Shown here: in pieces, positions 1-10,725 of the stretch | Position numbering within the stretch: the stretch's first letter is position 1 | How the letters are laid out: each line of letters begins with the position of its first letter | Virus genome (UHGV): UHGV-0134920 | Direction: 5' to 3' (one strand) | DNA from: a virus | DNA: 10,725 nt | Position numbers and translations under genes: made by a program | The notes under the pieces: model-generated | Told to the model about the DNA's origin: nothing | Seen by the model: only the letters and a program-made list of their open reading frames with translations | Database searches by the model: none

Positions 1-19
1 CGTGTGGAATCATATACAT

Positions 20-1261
20 ATGGCGAGAAAAACACCCCCATTAACCACGGTGCAGATCAAAGCAGCCAGACCAGCGGAAAAGGAATACACCCTACAGGAC
101 GGCGGAGGGCTTTTTCTCCTGGTCAAACCGTCCGGATCAAAACTCTGGCGATTTTCCTACTACCGGCCATCGGACAAAAAAAGAATATTGCTGAGTTTTG
201 GATCGCTTGATGATGTTTCCCTGGCTGATGCCAGAAAACGCCGTAGCGAGTACAGAGCGTTAATCAGTGCCGGAACTGACCCGCAGGGCCATGAGAAGAA
301 AAAACGAGAGGCAGAGGCCCGAAGACAAGGGAACACGTTCGAAAATGTGGCGGCGGCATGGTACCAGGTGAAAATCAGCCAGAATCTGGCCCCCAACACG
401 ATTAAAGACATCTGGCGATCGCTGGATAAATATGTATTCCCGTTCATCGGCAACACCCCAATAGACACCCTGACCGCTCGCAGGTTCGTTGAGGTGCTTA
501 CCCCCATCAAGGAGCGCGGCAACCTGGAAACACTCAAACGGGTTTTACAGCGCGTTAATGAGGTAATGGATTACGCCGCCAACAGTGGGCTGATTGATGC
601 CAATCCGGCTATGAATGTGCGTAAGGCGTTTCCCTCACCTGTAAAAAAACATATGCCAACAATCCGCCCCGAACAGCTGCCCGAGCTTATGCAGGCTTTA
701 TCAGTATCGGCAACAGAACGGCAGACCAGATTACTGATTGAATGGCAGTTACTGACCGTAACCCGTCCGGCCGAAGCGTCATCAACGCGGTGGGATGAAA
801 TCAACCTGGACGCGAAGCAATGGACGATACCTGCCGGACGCATGAAGATGCGCAGGGATCACGTTATCCCGCTTTCCGGTCAGGCTATGGCGGTACTGGA
901 GGCCATGAAACCAATCAGCCACCACCGCAATTACGTTTTCCCAAGTCTGAAAGACCCACAGCAGCCGATGAACAGCCAGACAGCTAACGCAGCATTGCGG
1001 CGTATGGGATTCGCTGGCGTGCTGGTGTCTCATGGATTACGCGCCATATTCAGCACAGCAGCGAACGAGGAAGGATTCGAGCCGGACGTAATAGAGGCGG
1101 CACTTGCCCACGTCGACACCAACGAAGTTAGACGGGCATACAACCGGAGCAACTACATAGAAAAACGCATCGTGCTGATGCGCTGGTGGGGCGAATTTGT
1201 CGAGGCTGCGGCGACGGGCGTAACCCTCGCCAGTGGTAAAAGGGGTATCCGAGCCGTGTAG
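20..1261 (+). CDS. int: tyrosine site-specific integrase (P4-type)
   Basis: Frame is open from position 2; first plausible start is ATG at 20 (MARKTPPLT...). N-terminus has the P4-type integrase pattern (LTxxQIKAAxPxEKEYxLxDGGGLxLLVKPSGSKxWRFxY). C-terminal catalytic region has HGLRAIFST (H-x-x-R) and RRAYNRSNY (Tyr nucleophile region). Stop TAG at 1259-1261. The att site would lie upstream of the window. Confidence 0.9.
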   Translation: MARKTPPLTTVQIKAARPAEKEYTLQDGGGLFLLVKPSGSKLWRFSYYRPSDKKRILLSFGSLDDVSLADARKRRSEYRALISAGTDPQGHEKKKREAEARRQGNTFENVAAAWYQVKISQNLAPNTIKDIWRSLDKYVFPFIGNTPIDTLTARRFVEVLTPIKERGNLETLKRVLQRVNEVMDYAANSGLIDANPAMNVRKAFPSPVKKHMPTIRPEQLPELMQALSVSATERQTRLLIEWQLLTVTRPAEASSTRWDEINLDAKQWTIPAGRMKMRRDHVIPLSGQAMAVLEAMKPISHHRNYVFPSLKDPQQPMNSQTANAALRRMGFAGVLVSHGLRAIFSTAANEEGFEPDVIEAALAHVDTNEVRRAYNRSNYIEKRIVLMRWWGEFVEAAATGVTLASGKRGIRAV

Positions 1262-1757: not shown

Positions 1758-1964
1758 ATGGAAGCAATCAGAAAAATTATCTTTCGCCAGGAAGTAAAAA
1801 AAATTATCCACATCAAGGCAGACAGCACGCTGCAAAGCATGATCAACGCCGGAGAATTTCCGCAGGGTTTTCGCGTTGGTTTACGCCGTCGCGGATGGTA
1901 TGAGGATGATGTGTTGGCCTGGCAGAAAGAACGCGAACAGGAAGCACGCGGAACGGCTGCTTAA
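1758..1964 (+). CDS. alpA: AlpA-family DNA-binding regulator / excisionase-like protein
   Basis: 68 aa; HTH region followed by the AlpA/Vis-type motif (GEFPQGFRVGLRRRGWYEDDVLAW); position right after int is typical. Stop TAA at 1962-1964. Confidence 0.8.
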   Translation: MEAIRKIIFRQEVKKIIHIKADSTLQSMINAGEFPQGFRVGLRRRGWYEDDVLAWQKEREQEARGTAA

Positions 1965-1996
1965 CGGGTATCACAGATATGACAAACACGAAAAAA

Positions 1997-2023
1997 GCGG
2001 CCCCGATATGGAGCCGCCTTTCT
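1997..2023. terminator. weak candidate bidirectional terminator between convergent alpA and minus-strand genes
   Basis: 5-bp GC stem GCGGC (1997-2001) / GCCGC (2013-2017), preceded by A6 (1991-1996) and followed by CTTTCT. Short stem, so weak. Confidence 0.25.
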
Positions 2024-2112
2024 GAACAATTAACCCGCTGCGCCTTATGTGTATGTGATCCCAAACATAAGCACGGGGATGATAGCCGCTATCAGGCTGG
2101 TGGGCAATGCAA

Positions 2113-2301
2113 TCAGTCTGGTTCAGTTCGTTGCCATACCTGCAATGAGCGCTTTTCCCTGTACTCTTTAAGGAATTGCTCAAGGGCAAAAGCACATGGC
2201 GCGAATCTTTCTGATTCATGCTCTATCTTTCTGCGCCGTCTTTTCCGTGCCGGTGATAATGTTTTGGTCAATTCTTTATCGGTCATTGTGTTGTCCTGCA
2301 T
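2113..2301 (-). CDS. doubtful small Arg/Lys-rich ORF (62 aa) downstream of the minus-strand regulator
   Basis: Sits in the only sizeable gap without a + strand gene (1965-2343), upstream of the candidate terminator on the minus strand. No convincing RBS; contains RKRRRRK. Confidence 0.2.
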   Translation of the reverse strand: MQDNTMTDKELTKTLSPARKRRRRKIEHESERFAPCAFALEQFLKEYREKRSLQVWQRTEPD

Positions 2302-2343
2302 AGCAATGCGCCGTAATACCTTACACCACGGCGCTGGTGATGG

Positions 2344-2649
2344 TTACTCCTGCTCTTTGGCCTTGCGGCGCTGTAGTTCTTCACGAGCGATGGCGATAAG
2401 TTGCCCGAGTTCTTCCGTAGCTTTAATACCAATTTTTTCCACTTGCGCCAATGCATCGAGAGAAGAAATCAGAGGATTTTCACTGCTTCCTTCTGCCTGG
2501 CGGCGGGCGATCTCCCCGCGCATGGCGGTTACTATGAATCCGGCGTTGCTTTCGCCGTCCAGTTTTACGGATTCCATGCCATCAAAAGCATCATGTGGGA
2601 TACGAATTGAAATCTGTTTTGATTTGTCGTTGATAGTGTTTTTTGCCAT
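2344..2649 (-). CDS. putative DNA-binding regulator (possibly ribbon-helix-helix), candidate island repressor
   Basis: 101 aa from ATG (reverse complement of 2647-2649) with GGAGAA RBS just upstream on the minus strand. N-terminal KQISIRIP segment is compatible with an RHH beta-strand. Divergent from the Icd/Ash/primase operon and adjacent to palindromic operators. The ORF-track start at 2688 is probably an upstream in-frame extension. Confidence 0.6.
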   Translation of the reverse strand: MAKNTINDKSKQISIRIPHDAFDGMESVKLDGESNAGFIVTAMRGEIARRQAEGSSENPLISSLDALAQVEKIGIKATEELGQLIAIAREELQRRKAKEQE

Positions 2650-2671
2650 GTGCATTCTCCTAAACAAAAGA

Positions 2672-2747
2672 TGTGATTCAGTATACACAAAAAAGAATCA
2701 CAAAAAACACTTGATCTGTGATTCAGTTGAATTTAATTTAAATCACA
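2672..2747. promoter_or_regulatory. divergent promoter/operator region with two related palindromic operators
   Basis: TGTGATTCAGT at 2672-2682 pairs with GAATCACA at 2695-2702; TGTGATTCAGT at 2717-2727 pairs with AATCACA at 2741-2747. GTATAC at 2681-2686 could give a minus-strand -10-like TATACT. The region lies between divergent start codons at 2649 (-) and 2837 (+). Confidence 0.6.
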
Positions 2748-2836
2748 CCTCAGTAAGAGGATGTAAACGACAACGCCCCGAACTGTTTGCGGCAGTAGCG
2801 GGGCGTCTAACCAAACCGTTAACAGGAGTAACGATT

Positions 2837-3034
2837 ATGGCTGGAACACAGCATACCCCACGTCTGGCGCACACACAAACTGCCTTTGTGTGGCGTTTTC
2901 TGGCACTGAGTGCCGGAGAATCTCAAATCATCCACGTAACCGCCTGGACGGAACGCGAAGCGCGTAGCCGTTGCCCGTCCGGTTGTGTTGCTGTATTCGC
3001 TGCCCGTATTCGCCAGGGGTCACATCATGCGTAA
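2837..3034 (+). CDS. Icd-like small protein (host cell division inhibitor-like family of P4-like elements)
   Basis: 65 aa; AGGAG RBS at 2824-2828; sequence FVWRF...TEREAR...ARIRQG recalled as the Icd-like signature (from memory, unverified). The upstream part of the 351-aa track ORF is rejected. Confidence 0.6.
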   Translation: MAGTQHTPRLAHTQTAFVWRFLALSAGESQIIHVTAWTEREARSRCPSGCVAVFAARIRQGSHHA

Positions 3035-3488
3035 AAACCGCTTGCAAAAAATTATCACGGGGCTGTATGCTTCCCCCGTCGCCCACATGGCGACCGGGTT
3101 TAGCAGCCTGAATACATCTGGCGGACAGCCGCCCACATCCGATAAGCGGTTTTTTTGTGTCCGTAAACCTACCCATACCCGCATTATGGCGGGGCGTAAC
3201 GGGGGAGCCTTTGTGCTCGCTGGTTTCCAGATGACCAGTCTGCTAACCCTGTTACGTCTCGCCACCATGTTTAGCAGCGTAGTAGCGAGACTCCTTAAAA
3301 TTCATCTGGGAGCCTTTCACATGGCTGTATTCGCACGCCCTTATTTTGTCTGGCGCTTTATGCAGTGCCTGACAGACAGTATTGCAATATTCACCGTTAC
3401 CGCTGCCACTGAGCGCGAAGCACGTGCACAGCTGCCGCACGCACATCTGATTTTTGTCGCCCGTATTCGTCAGGGGGTAGGCTTATGA
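3027..3488 (+). CDS. Ash-family-like protein with C-terminal Icd-like module
   Basis: ATG at 3027 overlaps the upstream stop by 8 nt. C-terminal ~55 aa (YFVWRFMQ...TEREARAQ...ARIRQG) are paralogous to the preceding 65-aa protein. An internal start near 3321 (MAVFARPYFVWRF) cannot be excluded. Stop overlaps the next start (ATGA at 3485-3488). Confidence 0.55.
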   Translation: MRKNRLQKIITGLYASPVAHMATGFSSLNTSGGQPPTSDKRFFCVRKPTHTRIMAGRNGGAFVLAGFQMTSLLTLLRLATMFSSVVARLLKIHLGAFHMAVFARPYFVWRFMQCLTDSIAIFTVTAATEREARAQLPHAHLIFVARIRQGVGL

Positions 3489-4160: not shown

Positions 4161-4460
4161 ATGAAACTTAAATATTCTGGCTTAACTGCCAGTGGCAAAA
4201 CTCGCACTAAATTCATGCGCGGTGATATTTACCGCGACCAGTACGGCGGCACGGTAATGATTAAGGGCGTGGAGGAACGGCGCGTAACCTACCGTCGTGA
4301 AGGCTACGAATATGATTGCGTGATGCCTGTTTATCAGTTCGATCGTGATTTTTCTCTGGTGCAGGCCGTACCGCGTAACGTGCCCACCAGCAGGGAGAAA
4401 GCACGCGCCAATATTCAGGAAATAAAAAAGATGCTTAACGTATTCAGGGGTAAAAAATGA
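4161..4460 (+). CDS. hypothetical protein (99 aa)
   Basis: GGAG at 4146-4149 upstream; stop overlaps the primase start (ATGA at 4457-4460), indicating operon coupling with the replication gene. Confidence 0.5.
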   Translation: MKLKYSGLTASGKTRTKFMRGDIYRDQYGGTVMIKGVEERRVTYRREGYEYDCVMPVYQFDRDFSLVQAVPRNVPTSREKARANIQEIKKMLNVFRGKK

Positions 4461-6205
4461 AACTGGCACCGAACGTAAAAAAACAGCCACGCGGAATAAA
4501 ACACAAAGACACAGAGGTAATTATTTTCGCGGGTAGTGATGCCTGGTCGCACGCGAAACAATGGCAGGAGCAGGATGGCCCCGCATCCGGCGATAATGTG
4601 CCGCCTGTGTGGCTTGGGCCAAATCAGCTTGCCGAACTTGATGCACTGAAAATTGTTCCGGATGGAAAAAAACGCGTAAGGCTGTACCAGGCCGGAGAAC
4701 TGGATTTGGTGGAGACCAAAAAGATTGGTCAGAAGCTGGCGGCGGCAGATATTCAGGACGCAAATTTTTACCCCGAAGGAATGCACGTCCAGAAGTGTGA
4801 AAACTGGCGGCGCTATCTGAATGCTGAGCGTGAAAATATTGCCGCAGGGCTTACCATGCCGGAGCAGAAAAATACGCAACTGGCACAAATGGCAGACAGT
4901 GAGCGCGCACAGATGCTTGCTGGTCGATTTGATGGCGTTTGTGTGCATCCGGAAAGTGAAATCGTTCACGTATGGCGCGGCGGGGTATGGTGTCCGGTCA
5001 GCACAATGGAACTTAGCCGCGAAATGGTGGCGATCTATTCAGAGCACAGGGCCACTTTCAGCAAGCGCGTAATCAATAACGCCGTGGAAGCGTTAAAAGT
5101 TATTGCCGAACCAATGGGCGAGCCGTCCGGCGATTTGCTGCCGTTCGCCAATGGTGCGCTTGACCTGAAAACGGGGGAATTTTCCCCGCACACGCCGGAG
5201 AACTGGATCACCACGCACAACGGCATTGAGTACACGCCACCAGCACCAGGGGAGAATATCTGCGACAACGCGCCAAACTTTCATAAATGGCTTGAGCACG
5301 CAGCCGGAAAAGACCCGCGCAAGATGATGCGTATATGTGCCGCGCTGTACATGATTATGGCGAACCGGTACGACTGGCAGATGTTTATTGAGGCCACCGG
5401 AGACGGCGGGAGCGGCAAAAGTACATTCACCCACATCGCCAGCCTTTTAGCGGGGAAACAAAACACGGTAAGCGCGGAAATGACATCGCTTGATGATGCT
5501 GGTGGGCGTGCGCAGGTTGTCGGGAGTCGTCTTATCGTCCTGGCAGACCAGCCGAAATATACAGGCGAAGGCACGGGCATCAAGAAAATCACGGGCGGCG
5601 ACCCCGTGGAAATCAACCCGAAATATGAAAAGCGTTTCACTACGGTAATCAGGGCGGTGGTGCTGGCGACCAATAACAACCCGATGATATTCACCGAACG
5701 GGCCGGAGGCGTGTCACGTCGTCGGGTTATTTTCCGCTTCGACAATATCGTAAGCGAGGCAGAAAAAGACAGGGAGCTACCGGAAAAGATCGCGGCTGAA
5801 ATCCCAGTCATTATCCGCCGCTTGCTGGCGAACTTTACCGACCCTGAGAAGGCACGGGCTTTACTACTGGAACAGCGTGACGGTGATGAAGCTCTGGCAA
5901 TAAAGCAACAGACGGATCCGGTTATTGAGTTTTGCCAGTTCCTGAATTTTCTGGAGGAAGCGCGCGGCCTGATGATGGGTGGCGGTGGCGATTCAGTGAA
6001 GTACACGACCAGGAACAGCCTTTACCGCGTCTATCTGGCGTTTATGGCATACGCCGGAAGGAACAAGCCGCTAAACGTGGCTGAGTTCAGCAAAGCTATG
6101 AAGCCAGCGGCGAAAGTTTACGGGCATGAATATATTACGCGGAAAGTCAATGGAGTTACGCAGACTAACGCAATAACAACAGACGATTGCGACGCGTTTT
6201 TATAA
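4457..6205 (+). CDS. replication initiator, P4 alpha C-terminal-like SF3 helicase/NTPase (primase-helicase family)
   Basis: 582 aa; Walker A GDGGSGKST, Walker B-like RLIVLADQP and SF3 motif C VVLATNNNP. Followed immediately by an iteron array. A catalytic primase (toprim/AEP) domain cannot be confirmed by eye. Confidence 0.85.
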   Translation: MKLAPNVKKQPRGIKHKDTEVIIFAGSDAWSHAKQWQEQDGPASGDNVPPVWLGPNQLAELDALKIVPDGKKRVRLYQAGELDLVETKKIGQKLAAADIQDANFYPEGMHVQKCENWRRYLNAERENIAAGLTMPEQKNTQLAQMADSERAQMLAGRFDGVCVHPESEIVHVWRGGVWCPVSTMELSREMVAIYSEHRATFSKRVINNAVEALKVIAEPMGEPSGDLLPFANGALDLKTGEFSPHTPENWITTHNGIEYTPPAPGENICDNAPNFHKWLEHAAGKDPRKMMRICAALYMIMANRYDWQMFIEATGDGGSGKSTFTHIASLLAGKQNTVSAEMTSLDDAGGRAQVVGSRLIVLADQPKYTGEGTGIKKITGGDPVEINPKYEKRFTTVIRAVVLATNNNPMIFTERAGGVSRRRVIFRFDNIVSEAEKDRELPEKIAAEIPVIIRRLLANFTDPEKARALLLEQRDGDEALAIKQQTDPVIEFCQFLNFLEEARGLMMGGGGDSVKYTTRNSLYRVYLAFMAYAGRNKPLNVAEFSKAMKPAAKVYGHEYITRKVNGVTQTNAITTDDCDAFL

Positions 6206-6491: not shown

Positions 6492-6806
6492 ATGCGCATA
6501 CATCAAAATAACTTAACAAACATATCAGCCGAAAACATGAATCAGGGGCGACAAATGGCCATAATTCACAGAGACAGAACACAGGCAAAATATAAAGCGT
6601 TAGACATGACAGAGCTTTCCCTAAAGGTGGCAATCAGAACGATAGACCGCCACACGCGGGAAGGATACGCGAAGGAACATCCCGACCTGATAAGCGCATT
6701 CATGACCACGGCGGCGGCAAACTTTGCCACGCTGACAGAACGGGAGATTGCCGAAGCGGAACAGGTAACAACCATCAACGTTAAAACCGGAGAGCAGACA
6801 GCATGA
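6492..6806 (+). CDS. hypothetical protein (104 aa)
   Basis: GAGGGGGG RBS at 6475-6482; stop overlaps the ssb start (ATGA at 6803-6806). Alternative internal starts at 6536 and 6555. Confidence 0.5.
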   Translation: MRIHQNNLTNISAENMNQGRQMAIIHRDRTQAKYKALDMTELSLKVAIRTIDRHTREGYAKEHPDLISAFMTTAAANFATLTEREIAEAEQVTTINVKTGEQTA

Positions 6807-7213
6807 CAGCACAGATAGCAGCTTACGGGCGGCTGGTGGACGACCCGCAGGTAAAACAGACCAGTAAGGGCACACCGATGACGCTGGCGCGTATGGCGGT
6901 ATCGCTGCCATGCAGCCAGGCACAGGATGGACAGGCGACGTTATGGCTATCGGTCATCGCATTTGGTAAGCAGGCCGACTTCCTGGCTAAACATCAAAAA
7001 GGCGACGTTGCCAGCGTATCCGGCACGATGCAGGTCAGCCAGTGGACCGGACAGAACGGGGAAACGCGGCAGGGCTGGCAGGTTATTGCAGACAGCGTAA
7101 TCAGTGCCCGTGCGGCACGTCCTGGCGGGAACAGACGCAAGACCACAGGCACACAGGGTAATCAGCCACCAGCGGGAGGCGATGCCCCTTACGGTGATGA
7201 TATTCCGTTCTGA
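6803..7213 (+). CDS. ssb: single-stranded DNA-binding protein
   Basis: 136 aa; OB-fold SSB pattern (AYGRLVDDPQVKQTSKG...WLSVIAFGKQADFLAKHQKGDVASVSGTMQVSQW), Gly/Pro/Gln-rich linker and acidic C-terminal tip ...GDDIPF typical of bacterial and phage SSBs. Confidence 0.85.
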   Translation: MTAQIAAYGRLVDDPQVKQTSKGTPMTLARMAVSLPCSQAQDGQATLWLSVIAFGKQADFLAKHQKGDVASVSGTMQVSQWTGQNGETRQGWQVIADSVISARAARPGGNRRKTTGTQGNQPPAGGDAPYGDDIPF

Positions 7214-7223
7214 GGGGGTGAGG

Positions 7224-7472
7224 ATGGTACATGACCGCATAGCGGAGGAACTCGAGGCAAAAGGCTTTTACCGGAGGGCGGCGGCACGATGGGGTGAAGT
7301 CATGCAACTGGTGGAGACAGACAAGGAACGGCATCAGGTTACGATGCGACGGCTGGAATGTTCCAGGAAGGCACAGAGGCCACCGGAGCCGCCAACGGAG
7401 AACTATGCAGACCTGAGAAATGCAGTAAATCGCACTTACGCAGACATGGGGCTGAGCAAATTAGCAGAGTAG
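7224..7472 (+). CDS. possible PerC-family-like transcriptional regulator (tentative)
   Basis: 82 aa from ATG 7224 (alternative GTG 7218). Motif EELEAKGFYRRAAARW resembles the conserved PerC/Pch segment as recalled. The N-terminal part of the 122-aa track ORF overlaps ssb out of frame and is rejected. Confidence 0.4.
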   Translation: MVHDRIAEELEAKGFYRRAAARWGEVMQLVETDKERHQVTMRRLECSRKAQRPPEPPTENYADLRNAVNRTYADMGLSKLAE

Positions 7473-7495
7473 GAATACCAGAACCACACCACACA

Positions 7496-7518
7496 GCCGG
7501 AGCAATCCGGCTTTTTTG
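7496..7518 (+). terminator. rho-independent terminator (first of two)
   Basis: GCCGG-agcaat-CCGGC hairpin followed by TTTTTTG. Confidence 0.5.
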
Positions 7519-7523
7519 CGCCC

Positions 7524-7566
7524 AAAAAAAGCCCGATAAGGTCAGAGGTGGCTTATCGGGCTTTTG
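7524..7566. terminator. bidirectional rho-independent terminator
   Basis: 10-bp stem GCCCGATAAG (7531-7540) / CTTATCGGGC (7552-7561), flanked by A7 upstream and TTTTG downstream. Confidence 0.6.
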
Positions 7567-7641
7567 CATATGAGGTTTTTTGGTGCACTGACACACATGA
7601 TCGGGATAATCATTTCATAATTTGCAACGCAACTCAATATC

Positions 7642-7696
7642 ATTGCACAAAATGCAATCATGATTATAATCATAACTGGATGAACATCCAGTTATG
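7642..7696 (+). promoter_or_regulatory. candidate sigma70-type promoter of the head operon overlapped by palindromic operator-like sites
   Basis: -35-like TTGCAC (7643-7648), 16-nt spacer, consensus -10 TATAAT (7665-7670). Palindromes ATTGCA-caaaa-TGCAAT (7642-7658), TGATTATAATCA (7661-7672) and perfect 12-bp arms CATAACTGGATG-aa-CATCCAGTTATG (7671-7696). Confidence 0.5.
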
Positions 7697-7726
7697 ATTT
7701 TTTAAGTCAAAGAGGAATTTCTTACT

Positions 7727-7933
7727 ATGGCTGAAGAGAAAAAAGGCGGTGTTTCGGTGTACATAAGCCCCGACATCGTGAAGGCGCTCAAGGAACGCCA
7801 CCAGCAGAACGTAAAAGCAGGCATTGCGGCAGGACTTGATCCGCTGGCGATGGTTGAGCCGTCAACAGGCTGGCAGGTACGCGCCTATTTACGCGCGGCG
7901 CTGGGTATGAATCAGGTTCACGGGGGTGAATAA
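7727..7933 (+). CDS. hypothetical protein (68 aa), first gene of the head operon
   Basis: AGAGGA RBS at 7711-7716; stop TAA overlaps the capsid gene ATG (7931-7935). Confidence 0.5.
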   Translation: MAEEKKGGVSVYISPDIVKALKERHQQNVKAGIAAGLDPLAMVEPSTGWQVRAYLRAALGMNQVHGGE

Positions 7934-8988
7934 TGACAGTAAAAGCAATAGCACTTAACACTAACCAGCTTTTTGCGTACCTGAATCGCGAGGATATTGC
8001 GGAATTTAAATTCAGTCCGCTGTTTACCGCGCTGTTTTTCCCGAACGTGGCGACATTCAACACACAGGACATCATGTTAGATAACCTGGATATTGAAGAA
8101 GTCACTATGTCGGCGTTTTGTTCGCCTATGGTGGGTAGCCAGGTTCAGCGCGATAAAGGGTACGAAACAAGCATTATTCGCCCTGGCTACATGAAGCCAA
8201 AACACGAAATCGATCCATTAAAAACAATAATGCGCATGGCTGGAGAAGATCCAGCACAGCTTAACGACCCTACCTACCGCCGTATGCGCCTGATTACTGG
8301 CAACATGCGCCGCCAGATAAACGCCATTAAAGCGCGCGAGGAATGGCTGGCGGTAAATGCGGTAACGACCGGAAAAAACATCATTGAGGGCGAAGGCATA
8401 GAGCGCTATGAAATCGACTGGAAGATACCGGAAAAAAACATCATAGAGCAGGCCGACGGTAAAAAATGGTCAGAGCAGGACAAAGACATACACGACCCAA
8501 TCTATGACATTGAGCTATACGCAGATCAGGCAGGTTGCCCCGCAAACGTCATGATTATGGGCGTTGATGTATGGCGCATGTTACGCAGCTTTAAAAAATT
8601 CCGTGAACTGTACGATCTCTCCCGTGGTTCAGAATCCGCCGCAGAGCTGGCATGTAAAAACCTGGGCGAAGTGGTGAGCTTTAAAGGCTATCTTGGTGAT
8701 CTGGCCCTTATCGTCTATTCCGGCAAATACACTGACAGCGACGGCACAGAAAAATATTTCCTTGAGCCTGATTTGCTGGTCCTGGGCAACACCAACAATA
8801 AAGGGCTGGTGGCCTATGGTGCGATTATGGAACAGGAAGCGGTAAGAACGGGCGCAACGCAAAACATGTTTTACCCGAAAAACTGGATTGAGGACGGCGA
8901 TCCGGCGATTGAGTACGTGCAGACGCACAGCGCACCGCAGCCGGTTCCGGCAGATATTCGCAAATTTGTTACCGTCAAAATTGGTTAA
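7933..8988 (+). CDS. major capsid protein, lambda gpE family
   Basis: 351 aa; colinear similarity to lambda gpE as recalled (FKFSPLF..LFF; RPGYMKPKHEIDP; EDPAQLNDPTYRRMRLITGNMR; KGYLGDLALIVYSGKY; VLGNT; YPKNW; SAPQPVPAD). Confidence 0.9.
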   Translation: MTVKAIALNTNQLFAYLNREDIAEFKFSPLFTALFFPNVATFNTQDIMLDNLDIEEVTMSAFCSPMVGSQVQRDKGYETSIIRPGYMKPKHEIDPLKTIMRMAGEDPAQLNDPTYRRMRLITGNMRRQINAIKAREEWLAVNAVTTGKNIIEGEGIERYEIDWKIPEKNIIEQADGKKWSEQDKDIHDPIYDIELYADQAGCPANVMIMGVDVWRMLRSFKKFRELYDLSRGSESAAELACKNLGEVVSFKGYLGDLALIVYSGKYTDSDGTEKYFLEPDLLVLGNTNNKGLVAYGAIMEQEAVRTGATQNMFYPKNWIEDGDPAIEYVQTHSAPQPVPADIRKFVTVKIG

Positions 8989-9000
8989 CGGGGGGATTCT

Positions 9001-9336
9001 ATGGACACTCCATACATTGAGTTATTTGCAGGCAGTCAGCAGGTATCCACGACGCTGGTACATTTTGCCGCTGATGCTGGCGTTATTCAGGAATTTACCC
9101 CGCTGATGCTGGCGGACAATGGCGAGTTTAAGCCGTGGGATGGTCAGGAATCTGGCAAGGCTGTTTATCTGACTTCGTACCCCGTGGACACGTCAAAGCA
9201 GAAATCAGCACAGTGTTACAAGACGGGGATATTTAATATCGCCGCCGTAAACTGGCCTGAGAGCGCCGACACTGACGCGAAAAAATGCGCCGCCTTTGCG
9301 GGTTCTGGCGTATCCGTTCAGCCGCTGGCGCGATAA
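9001..9336 (+). CDS. head decoration protein, lambda gpD family
   Basis: 111 aa; matches to lambda gpD as recalled (TPLMLAD, KPWDG, YKTGIFN, WPESADTDAKKCAAFAGSG). Confidence 0.85.
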   Translation: MDTPYIELFAGSQQVSTTLVHFAADAGVIQEFTPLMLADNGEFKPWDGQESGKAVYLTSYPVDTSKQKSAQCYKTGIFNIAAVNWPESADTDAKKCAAFAGSGVSVQPLAR

Positions 9337-9348
9337 GCAGGGGAAACG

Positions 9349-9762
9349 ATGGCAACGAATGAAAGCATCATGGCGCTACCGCTGGCGAGTAAATTTAAAG
9401 CAGAAGCGCGGGCAATGGCTGACAGAGGTTTATCAACCTACGAGGCCGTATATCAACTCAACAAACTGGAAGAACAGGACAAGCCGCGCGCTGATGCGAT
9501 TATGGCGCTTCATGAGCATAAAGACTATCAGCCGCTGTTACGTGCAATGGCAAACGTGCCATGTATTAGCGTCGATAATGCTCGTGAAATCCTGAACATG
9601 ACCATAGAGCAGGAGCGCCCAAAGGTTGCACCAGAGCTTACCGCAGCCTTTGAAAACTTTATGGACATGCACAGCCCGCAAGCCGTATCAGCTGGCATGG
9701 CGTACGATGGCAGAAACCAGGGCGATGACGGCGACATCGATCGCATACTGAAAACCATCTGA
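9349..9762 (+). CDS. hypothetical protein (137 aa), last gene of the head operon
   Basis: CAGGGGAAA RBS-like sequence upstream of ATG 9349; acidic; followed by a strong terminator; no recognisable family. Confidence 0.55.
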   Translation: MATNESIMALPLASKFKAEARAMADRGLSTYEAVYQLNKLEEQDKPRADAIMALHEHKDYQPLLRAMANVPCISVDNAREILNMTIEQERPKVAPELTAAFENFMDMHSPQAVSAGMAYDGRNQGDDGDIDRILKTI

Positions 9763-9768
9763 GACAAG

Positions 9769-9792
9769 GCCGGAGAAATCCGGCTTTTTTTT
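9769..9792 (+). terminator. rho-independent terminator
   Basis: GCCGGA-gaaa-TCCGGC hairpin followed by T8 (9785-9792). Confidence 0.8.
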
Positions 9793-9824
9793 ACGGGTCC
9801 TTTCCGGCATATGGACCCGTTACG

Positions 9825-9858
9825 GGGCGGCGACCTCGCGGTTTTTCGCTATTTATGA
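9825..9858. other. lambda-type cos site (cosN core plus conserved flank)
   Basis: GGGCGGCGACCT at 9825-9836 equals the lambda 12-nt cohesive end as recalled. The next 22 nt CGCGGTTTTTCGCTATTTATGA (9837-9858) differ from the recalled lambda left-end CGCGGGTTTTCGCTATTTATGA at one position. Lies ~135 bp upstream of a Nu1-like gene, as in lambda. Confidence 0.7.
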
Positions 9859-9930
9859 GCCTTTTCAGGGGGGTGGTGGTGGTTTTGTTGTTTGCTCTAT
9901 CTTTATGAATGAAAAGGGAAAGATGCAAAC

Positions 9931-9968
9931 AATACACCAACCTGAAGCAGTAATTAAGTTGGTGTATT
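9931..9968. promoter_or_regulatory. 11-bp perfect inverted repeat abutting the terS start (candidate cosB/TerS-binding or translational control element)
   Basis: AATACACCAAC (9931-9941) and GTTGGTGTATT (9958-9968) separated by 16 nt; ends 1 nt before the ATG at 9970. Confidence 0.4.
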
Positions 9969-9969
9969 A

Positions 9970-10523: not shown

Positions 10524-10725
10524 ATGACTGAATCCGAAATACTGCGATTAATCCGCCGCGTCTCTGGAATCAGCCAGCAGGCTGACGAACAGACCACGCA
10601 GCCGGACAGCGTGACAGCCGAAAACTATGCGCGTGTTGTTGCTGAGGTGATGCGCCGTGATGGTATAGAACTTAATGGCGTGGATATGCGCAACATACGA
10701 ACCAGAGTTCTTGAGTTGCTGGCCT
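10524..10725 (+). CDS. hypothetical protein, 5' partial (runs off the window)
   Basis: ATG at 10524, 12 nt after the terS stop; open to the window end (MTESEILRLIRRVSGISQQADEQ...). No resemblance to the lambda gpA N-terminus as recalled. Confidence 0.45.
   Translation, partial: MTESEILRLIRRVSGISQQADEQTTQPDSVTAENYARVVAEVMRRDGIELNGVDMRNIRTRVLELLA

Follow-up and report, generated by a model that had tools for sequence, protein, structure and literature searches.

A conserved capsid cassette with a scaffold-like protein and a predicted LexA-type operator in a phage satellite of the EcCICFT073 family

Introduction

Phage-inducible chromosomal islands (PICIs) of Gram-negative bacteria are the closest described systems to the locus reported here, which lies in a 10,725-nucleotide stretch of the virus genome UHGV-0134920 (hereafter the window) and encodes a lambda gpE-type major capsid protein (MCP) and a gpD-type decoration protein. 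The prototype island, EcCICFT073, has genes for a predicted capsid protein (c1499) and for a decoration protein of the head (c1500), according to Fillol-Salom et al. 2018 (PMC6092414). In that paper, helper-dependent induction, packaging and transfer are shown experimentally for EcCICFT073 only, and the E. coli PICIs bearing a small terminase subunit (TerS) gene (IHE3034, 18098) are barely transferred by resident prophages. A third gene of EcCICFT073, c1503, encodes RppA and serves interference and packaging (PMC6739421). An MCP gene was found in 21 of 29 reference Gram-negative PICIs and is dispensable for transfer (Mageeney et al. 2023, PMC10111431).

The block at 7727-9762 of the window is almost certainly a conserved four-gene capsid cassette of the c1498-c1501 type, carried by a classical Gram-negative PICI of the EcCICFT073 family. 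Its host element is a phage satellite of about 11 kb, a parasite of lambdoid helpers with lambda- or 21-type heads. This arrangement is already described as a trait of Gram-negative PICIs (PMC10111431) and is not a new discovery. Our analysis adds to the published work the scaffold homology of the 137-amino-acid (aa) protein of the cassette, and a conserved promoter with a LexA-box-like operator that is also present in islands of Salmonella enterica and Pluralibacter gergoviae. It further adds the purifying selection on three of the cassette genes, the count of E. coli genomes that carry the block, and the observation that the module is disrupted in each EcCICFT073 derivative named in the available text. 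Taken as a whole, a PICI capsid cassette with SOS-controlled shell-building that uses helper parts is the best explanation of the locus, and we consider it a probable one.

Results

The cassette genes follow one another in the order 68 aa, MCP, decoration and 137 aa as one tightly packed unit (Table 1). The stop codon of the 68-aa gene overlaps the start codon of the MCP gene (TAATG), to which it is translationally coupled, and the next two intergenic gaps are 12 nt each. In Pfam searches, the MCP reached 169.7 bits with Phage_cap_E (cut-off 22.9) and the decoration protein 64.7 bits with HDPD (cut-off 29.1). Between the MCP and lambda gpE the identity is 43%, and the lambda gpE structure 7VI9 is among the structure matches (E = 6e-82) of the MCP; its match to PDB entry 3BQW ("putative capsid protein of prophage"), which we take to be CFT073 protein c1499, is near residue-for-residue (E = 2e-228). 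The decoration protein is 37% identical to lambda gpD, and its closest match is SHP of phage 21 (1TD0, E = 6e-13). With the open reading frames (ORFs) in place, these family and structure matches confirm what a first-pass annotation of the window had proposed, that a gpE-like gene precedes a gpD-like one. The MCP and decoration protein of the CFT073 helper itself are 45% and 43% identical to those of the island.

The first-pass annotation also treated the flanking 68-aa and 137-aa ORFs as unknowns, which holds for the former and fails for the latter. Homologues of the 68-aa protein (phrog_3255) occur only in Enterobacteriaceae islands, and the Pfam/NCBIfam search assigned it no family. In its AlphaFold2 (AF2) model, with a predicted local distance difference test score (pLDDT) of 74, two helices come after a short beta-hairpin at the N-terminus, and a fold search with this model gave no significant match. 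Structure prediction, which had been suggested for both proteins, was less useful for the 137-aa protein, whose monomer model is all-helical with a pLDDT of 49.6 and is too poor for a fold search.

Judged by sequence comparison, the 137-aa protein is scaffold-like and homologous to the C-terminal part of a phage-21/Nu3-type scaffold. The alignment with the scaffolding protein of phage 21, the Nu3 equivalent, pairs residues 49-131 with its C-terminal 80 residues (39% identity over 83 aa, E = 7e-12), and hhalign against the phage-21-type scaffold gave a probability of 96% (E = 1.5e-9). In the experimentally paired CFT073 system, the orthologue c1501 matches the C-terminus of the helper gpC (37% identity, E = 2e-10). 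The "head maturation protease" family phrog_53 matches the 137-aa protein through its C-terminal end only (1e-10), and a phmmer search of 1.8 billion representatives returned, beyond orthologues, two Nu3-like repeat proteins (E ~3e-5). The protein contains two "IMAL..RAMA..A..IL" repeats and a C-terminal F-x-x-F-M-x-x-H-S-P-x-A-V motif (FENFMDMHSPQAV). Scaffolds of the Nu3/gpC type are about 200 aa long and are encoded in frame in the 3' part of the protease gene. The 137-aa gene, in contrast, is free-standing and lies downstream of the decoration gene, on an island that has no protease gene.

Two other assignments of this protein were rejected. Direct homology to lambda Nu3 was not significant (BLASTP E = 3.5, hhalign probability 5%), and the label "phage head-tail connector protein" given by the NCBI Prokaryotic Genome Annotation Pipeline is supported by no Pfam or NCBIfam model. 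The pipeline is itself inconsistent (L008:4850-5263 and proteins P0032-P0066; loci are cited by our handle and position), using the connector name in some genomes and "hypothetical protein" in others. Natural variants of 93 aa in E. coli (P0058, P0060 and P0062) lack exactly residues 21-64, which corresponds to the loss of one internal repeat, with the repeated RAMA motif on either side of the deletion. In the Salmonella and Pluralibacter islands, a much shorter gene takes the 137-aa position.

Table 1. Positions of the features in the window, with the evidence for each
Feature	Position	Strand	Evidence or remark
Tyrosine integrase	2-1261		Phage_integrase 6e-29 and Arm-DNA-bind_3 (Pfam); at one end, co-oriented with most genes
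AlpA-like helix-turn-helix (HTH) protein	1758-1964		downstream of int
Small Icd-like and DUF4222 genes			between AlpA-like gene and primase in the gene list
D5_N/P4-type primase	4457-6205		D5_N, DUF5906, sub-threshold Pox_D5; phrog_864 DNA primase 1e-169
Single-stranded DNA-binding protein (SSB)	6803-7213		
PerC-family regulator	~7224-7472		2e-35; directly upstream of head cassette, own terminator behind
Intrinsic terminator after PerC-like gene	7495-7518 (stem 7495-7512 plus T-run)	+	-12.6 kcal/mol; 0/200 shuffles fold as well
Second hairpin	7527-7565		A-run on one side, T-run on the other; -23.4 kcal/mol, z = -4.9; 0/200 shuffles as good
Sigma-70-type promoter of head operon	7643-7670	+	-35 TTGCAC 7643-7648, 16-nt spacer, perfect -10 TATAAT 7665-7670
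LexA-box-like operator	7674-7693		AACTGGATGAACATCCAGTT (CTG-N10-CAG); directly 3' of -10 box
68-aa protein (c1498 position)	7727-7933	+	phrog_3255, no known function
Lambda gpE-type MCP, 351 aa (c1499 orthologue)	7933-8988	+	Pfam Phage_cap_E 1e-49
gpD/SHP-type decoration protein, 111 aa (c1500 orthologue)	9001-9336	+	Pfam HDPD 1e-17
Free-standing mini-scaffold, 137 aa (c1501 orthologue, also 137 aa)	9349-9762	+	scaffold homology
Strong intrinsic terminator closing head operon	9766-9795 (hairpin 9766-9787 plus T-run)	+	9-bp GC-rich stem, 8 T, -16.3 kcal/mol
Lambda-type cosQ/cosN	9796-9858	+	12-nt cohesive end GGGCGGCGACCT at 9825-9836
Island-specific cosB-like region	9859-9969	+	inverted repeat ATACACCAAC...GTTGGTGTAT just before terS
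Nu1-type TerS, 180 aa	9970-10512	+	Pfam Phage_Nu1 2e-23; 35% identical to lambda Nu1
5' part of 93-aa gene	10524-10725 (67 codons visible, 10524-10724)	+	matches 93-aa protein of L001; phrog_1561

The window ends at 10725 inside a gene, and the end of the island was judged from related islands in complete E. coli genomes. In five of these, at four insertion sites and including EcCICFT073, the element ends 0.3-1.3 kb past the 93-aa gene, which is the last island gene (L001, L002 from Nissle, L003, L007 from CFT073, and L008). The next gene is clpS in strains AVS0542 and N10 (0.8 and 1.3 kb after the 93-aa gene), yejO in S1-CAM-02-A (0.9 kb), an autotransporter pseudogene in the yejO position in Nissle 1917 (0.7 kb), and phoQ in CFT073 (0.55 kb). 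The island in Nissle is bracketed by 26-nt direct repeats 11,257 bp apart, which we read as its ends. Neither the window nor any of the five islands contains genes for a portal, a protease, the large terminase subunit (TerL), a connector, a tail or lysis.

These island ends bear on the most conventional account of the locus, in which it is an ordinary complete prophage head module with portal, protease, scaffold and TerL genes just past the window. The position of the window end, inside a gene, would leave space for such genes, and the first-pass annotation had noted that they might lie downstream. They do not in the five related islands, one of which carries a head module 100% identical to that of the window: all end soon after the 93-aa gene and are followed by the host genes clpS, a yejO-type autotransporter or phoQ. 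The rest of the window is, in addition, a PICI backbone of integrase, AlpA-like, primase, SSB and PerC genes, and the complete-module account is effectively refuted. The view that the remaining head machinery is absent from the island is borne out, the related islands ending shortly after TerS, or its substitute, and the 93-aa gene. The interpretation in the first-pass annotation thus holds in part: the machinery is missing, but the cassette has a scaffold fragment.

The 10.7-kb window reads as one co-oriented element and has features of a PICI, among them the integrase at one end and a primase of its own. Judged from the related islands, it falls in the size range of 10-20 kb without portal, TerL, tail or lysis genes, and it carries a lambda-type cosN and a Nu1-type TerS for the hijack of packaging. 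A capsid-forming PICI (cf-PICI) has a complete set of MCP, protease, portal, head-tail connector, TerS and TerL genes, often with HNH; here only the MCP, decoration protein, mini-scaffold and TerS occur, and the others are missing from the window and from the related islands.

Support for the promoter and terminator sites comes from conservation and not from scan counts; a promoter/terminator scan of the window as a whole showed no enrichment over shuffles. The 200 bp upstream of the cassette are nearly invariant in six islands. The head promoter was read directly from the sequence, the consensus scan having missed it with a -35 box that matches at 3/6 positions, and islands of E. coli, Salmonella and Pluralibacter share its TTGCNN-16 nt-TATAAT layout. 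Upstream of it, the terminator behind the PerC-like gene is kept in 5/6 islands and the second hairpin is nearly invariant in 6; we read the latter as a bidirectional terminator that insulates the head operon from the replication module. By their folding energies, these two hairpins and the terminator behind the 137-aa gene agree with the first-pass annotation, which had given the operon terminators on both sides as well as a promoter of its own.

A further terminator, proposed for the hairpin at 7668-7699, is not upheld. This palindrome is better read as a LexA-type operator, because it overlaps the -10 box, because only its core CTGGAT-N4-ATCCAG, and not its outer arms, is conserved between islands, and because of its score with a provisional LexA weight matrix that was built from E. 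coli SOS boxes. The site scored 21.5 bits, compared with a median of 20.1 for true sites and about 20 for ruvAB-type CTGG..CCAG boxes, and 0/300 shuffles reached this value. In four E. coli islands, one Salmonella island (GACTGGATAAATATCCAGAT, 17.6 bits) and one Pluralibacter island (AACTGGATGTTTGTCCAGTT, 19.8 bits, shifted by 12 nt), no site anywhere in the island scores higher. The cassette is thereby predicted to be an SOS-derepressed unit. The two EcCICFT073 papers name LexA in their reference lists only, and a full-text literature search found no description of LexA control of these islands.

Instead of a LexA site, the 7668-7699 palindrome could act in the RNA, as a terminator or attenuator, or be an operator bound by an island regulator such as the 68-aa protein or PerC, with the operon switched by helper or island and not by SOS. 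The RNA folds well (-17.7 kcal/mol, z = -7) and is followed by a T-run, a PerC-family regulator is encoded directly upstream, and the strand-helix-helix model of the 68-aa protein could be that of a DNA-binding protein. However, with the left arm of the palindrome overlapping the -10 box, part of the stem would be missing from the transcript of the operon itself. In the Nissle, S1-CAM, Salmonella and Pluralibacter islands, the outer arms differ without compensating changes, whereas CTGGAT-N4-(A/G)TCCAG is kept even when shifted by 12 nt. The matrix score equals that of bona fide SOS boxes, and no fold match supports DNA binding by the 68-aa protein. We regard such non-SOS control as a minority possibility, and a LexA-type operator as the preferred reading of the palindrome.

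A mimic of Q antitermination, in the form of a copy of a lambdoid pR'/qut/tR' unit, was also considered. It was rejected because of the overlap of the hairpin with the -10 box and because blastn with 7473-7730 gave no match among 50,697 phage records. Positions 1260-1279, at the integrase stop codon and upstream of the regulatory genes, form another LexA-box-like site of lower score (AGCTGTACAGAAAACCAGTA, 16 bits, higher than the 95th percentile of shuffles); the Nissle island has the same site (L002:9260, 17 bits).

The cassette block is present in 598/5426 complete E. coli genomes and is full-length in 592/598 of them. All four ORFs are intact in the 6 islands compared. Among these, the ratio of nonsynonymous to synonymous substitution rates (dN/dS) is ~0.13 for the MCP gene, ~0.1 for the decoration gene and ~0.2 for the 137-aa gene, which indicates purifying selection on these three; in the 68-aa gene the changes are too few for a judgement. 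In full-length matches, the MCP is at most 48% identical to any of 50,697 phage records, and the MCP of a Salmonella island is 66% identical to that of the window. This difference points to a satellite-specific clade of island MCPs. The satellite copies of three helper head proteins are thus old and maintained.

Close relatives of the MCP seem to be confined to a few Enterobacteriaceae, and a scan of one genome per species for MCP relatives confirmed none. The context of the cassette in other genera was reached through homologues of the 68-aa protein. The Salmonella relative (L011:157-1284, 1309-2541) lies directly after a truncated GpA_ATPase (large terminase) gene, has a third head gene of only 68 aa, and resembles the helper-embedded PICIs that Mageeney et al. 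described. In Pluralibacter gergoviae, the MCP gene is split into ORFs of 179 aa and 170 aa in two independent assemblies (L009:10207-11260, L010:7785-8838). In the Pluralibacter island, an Rpp/Nu1-like HTH protein is moreover followed by a 194-aa Lambda_tail_I-like gene and further small genes, which may be a tail-interference defence.

Downstream of the cassette, positions 9825-9858 are identical to lambda bases 1-34 at 33/34 positions and contain the only exact cosN of the window. Presumably cosQ lies within the same region (9796-9858), an assignment that relies on the right end of lambda. A terminator-like scan hit at 9823-9838 is this lambda-type cosN and not a terminator. The adjoining region, 9859-9969, diverges from lambda cosB in alignment, and its position suggests a cosB-like function. 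The best phage match of TerS is N15 gp1 (46% identity).

The slot between cos and the 93-aa gene has alternative occupants, TerS (180 aa) in the window and, in CFT073, a gene of 144 aa in the RefSeq annotation (L007:2660-3094) that is taken to be RppA (c1503). Neither the TerS-like nor the 93-aa protein had a PDB sequence match, and the idea that one of them is RppA was rejected on this ground and because RppA of CFT073 is taken to be a different gene that shares the slot. The 93-aa protein has no family match beyond phrog_1561, whose function is unknown. Four related islands have a second, inverted cosN between TerS/RppA and the 93-aa gene (L002:18351-18362, L003:18057-18068, L007:3298-3309 and L008:6192-6203), forming pairs that match the cos1/cos2 reported for EcCICFT073; the window has a single cosN.

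Elsewhere in the window, the AlpA-like protein has a weak Pfam match to Phage_AlpA (E = 0.0035, 17.6 bits, cut-off 21) and a PHROG match to "excisionase and transcriptional regulator" (5.5e-7). Two long overlapping ORFs, 1979-3034 and 2985-3488, share the terminal motif TEREAR..ARIRQG. At the 1979-3488 position, related islands are annotated with Icd-like cell-division-inhibitor genes and an "ash family" pseudogene, and duplicated short Icd-like genes probably underlie the long ORFs, which would then be artefacts. At the position of the PerC-family gene, no such gene is annotated in the Nissle island. The window has a mosaic make-up: strain AVS0542, whose island is next to clpS, has a 100% identical head module, the integrase/primase part of the window is closest to islands adjoining tRNA-Pro, and the best full-length match among E. 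coli genomes has only 94% identity over 85% of the window.

Discussion

In the mechanism that we propose, a sigma-70 promoter and a LexA-type operator would make the cassette a separate transcription unit, and the SOS signal by which the helper prophage is induced would derepress it as well. The MCP, mini-scaffold, decoration protein and coupled 68-aa protein would then be made as the lambdoid helper is induced. MCP and mini-scaffold would assemble lambda-type shells on the helper portal and protease, or join helper shells, the conserved C-terminus of the mini-scaffold being the part expected to contact the coat protein. A co-evolved decoration protein would stabilise these shells after expansion, and the shells would use the helper portal, protease, FI/W/FII and tails. 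Island concatemers would be cut at the lambda-type cos by helper TerL, steered by the Nu1-like TerS of the island.

That the cassette proteins build or join shells is a serious possibility, if somewhat less than an even one. The decoration protein of lambda binds only an assembled, expanded lattice of the gpE type. Real shells are suggested because a matched MCP, decoration protein and scaffold are inherited together. An encapsulin-like compartment was rejected as an alternative, since the island has neither a cargo gene nor a targeting partner but does have a lattice-specific decoration protein. With no portal, protease, TerL or completion genes on the island, any shell of the island MCP would need those of the helper. 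The suggestion in the first-pass annotation that helper portal, protease and scaffold would have to be co-opted therefore stands for portal and protease, and a scaffold need not be fully co-opted given the 137-aa protein. The capsid-allele replacement proposed along with it is unproven and not supported.

Several points weigh against shell-building. The Delta-c1499 and Delta-c1500 mutations alter neither transfer nor interference with lambda, and packaged EcCICFT073 DNA is phage-sized, with no small capsids seen for the marked island (PMC6092414). An island with c1498-c1501::cas9 is still delivered by phi80, and the region was named an "adaptable module" (Ibarra-Chavez et al. 2020, PMC10530653). 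Expressed singly from pBAD, only c1503 of the region blocked lambda (PMC6739421). An identity of ~45% makes co-assembly with the helper portal or MCP uncertain, the split MCP gene of the Pluralibacter relative shows that the gene can decay by frameshift, and the LexA matrix is a provisional one.

The genetic background of the published tests affects how they can be read. The standard EcCICFT073 derivative is c1501::tetA and another is c1499::cat (PMC6092414), and Table 1 of that paper places the Delta-c1499 and Delta-c1500 mutants in the c1501::tetA derivative. The notation suggests that the tetA insertion inactivates c1501. If so, no experiment in the available text compared an intact with a deleted cassette. 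The sizing of packaged DNA may be limited to an equal extent, the marked derivative being unnamed in the passage concerned. Every EcCICFT073 derivative named there has a disrupted module.

The cassette must be accessory, because helper capsids alone (lambda, phi80 and the CFT073 prophage) suffice for transfer, and its benefit must be quantitative, helper-specific or ecological. The 11.26-kb island equals 23% of the lambda genome, and four copies equal 93%, a size that would fit packaging of multimers in normal heads; for a monomer, the shell would have to be much smaller. We consider it improbable that the cassette is a working "half capsid kit", which on SOS induction would make lambda-type shells from the island MCP, mini-scaffold and decoration protein, nucleate them on the helper portal and protease, and fill them through island TerS and helper TerL. 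Such shells might be small, of a size for a monomer. The kit could have escaped notice, as c1501::tetA, c1499::cat or c1498-c1501::cas9 was present in the EcCICFT073 derivatives that the available text names. If real, it would be an intermediate between classical PICIs and cf-PICIs.

The same transfer results also fit a cassette without a current role, a dispensable relic or "adaptable" cargo slot left by a fuller ancestor, either a cf-PICI-like element or a prophage. Transfer survives both the deletions and full replacement of the region, for which the authors chose the adaptable-module name; the Pluralibacter MCP is frameshifted, the gene in the 137-aa position is reduced in Salmonella and Pluralibacter, and E. 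coli has natural 93-aa deletion variants. Decay of this kind is at odds, however, with dN/dS values of 0.1-0.2 for three of four genes and intact ORFs in 6 islands, with the 592/598 full-length occurrences, and with an MCP clade conserved across genera at 66% and a promoter and operator conserved across three genera. The published tests, as described in the available text, moreover used backgrounds in which c1501 or c1499 was already disrupted. A relic is, in our estimate, unlikely, though slightly less so than the half capsid kit.

Another role compatible with SOS-timed expression, which would coincide with prophage induction, is interference or defence, the satellite MCP and scaffold poisoning lambdoid heads of helper or non-helper phages by co-assembly or acting as decoys. 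PICIs commonly carry interference or defence functions downstream of the replication origin (PMC6092414), and the MCP homologue Ccm of SaPIbov5 interferes with its helper. Yet Delta-c1499 and Delta-c1500 did not relieve interference with lambda (PMC6092414), and from pBAD only c1503 reduced plating of lambda or phi80 (PMC6739421). A cognate decoration protein is also hard to explain for a pure poison. We think interference a poor candidate, behind the relic and still further behind shells made or joined by the cassette proteins, the reading that we carry forward.

About one in nine complete E. coli genomes keep the cassette intact and under purifying selection, including Nissle 1917, CFT073, ATCC 25922 and O157:H7 strains. 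Engineers nevertheless use this widespread cassette as a free cargo slot. The puzzle of a coat protein in a satellite that has no portal or protease can now be tested with a scaffold homologue, an SOS-type operator conserved across genera and, inside the scaffold gene, the marker of the founding experiments. If the cassette builds or modifies capsids, it would bridge satellites with wholly stolen capsids and satellites with capsids of their own making, its replacement might cost engineered PICI "drones" performance, and the interpretation of phage-satellite particles in E. coli populations would be affected.

Among known systems, EcCICFT073 shares with the window the order PerC, 68 aa, MCP, decoration, 137 aa, cos, packaging gene and 93 aa, a head block of 94.5% identical DNA (second CFT073 assembly) and a lambda-type cosN. 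It differs in having RppA (c1503) and two cosN where the window has a Nu1-type TerS and one cosN, and it adjoins phoQ, whereas islands related to the rest of the window adjoin tRNA-Pro or cspD/clpS. PICI 11capE (Mageeney et al., PMC10111431) is an island of the same kind with a gpE-family capsid gene, but lies inside a helper gene, while the relatives of the window in N10, Nissle and S1-CAM occupy chromosomal sites.

Lambda and phage 21 have a homologous MCP, decoration protein, scaffold C-terminus (phage 21), cosN and Nu1, at identities of only 35-48%. Their gene order is scaffold-D-E, the reverse of E-D-scaffold on the island, and their scaffold is nested in the protease gene, whereas that of the island is short and free-standing. 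The island is without A, W, B, C, FI and FII, and its module has its own predicted LexA-type promoter in place of the Q-dependent late transcription of lambda.

Like the window, cf-PICIs of the EcCIEDL933 type combine a PICI backbone with capsid-forming genes of their own and TerS. They carry the full set of MCP, protease, portal, connectors, HNH, TerS and TerL and form their own small capsids, in contrast to the shell proteins and TerS alone found here. In the Staphylococcus aureus pathogenicity island (SaPI) SaPIbov5, Ccm is likewise a satellite-encoded MCP paralogue in a cos-packaged PICI, but it redirects helper MCP into small capsids and has no sequence relationship to the island MCP. Work by Ubeda from 2007 is said to have placed SaPI operon I, for morphogenesis, under LexA control. 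The island cassette, whose LexA control is predicted at the sequence level, is functionally like this operon.

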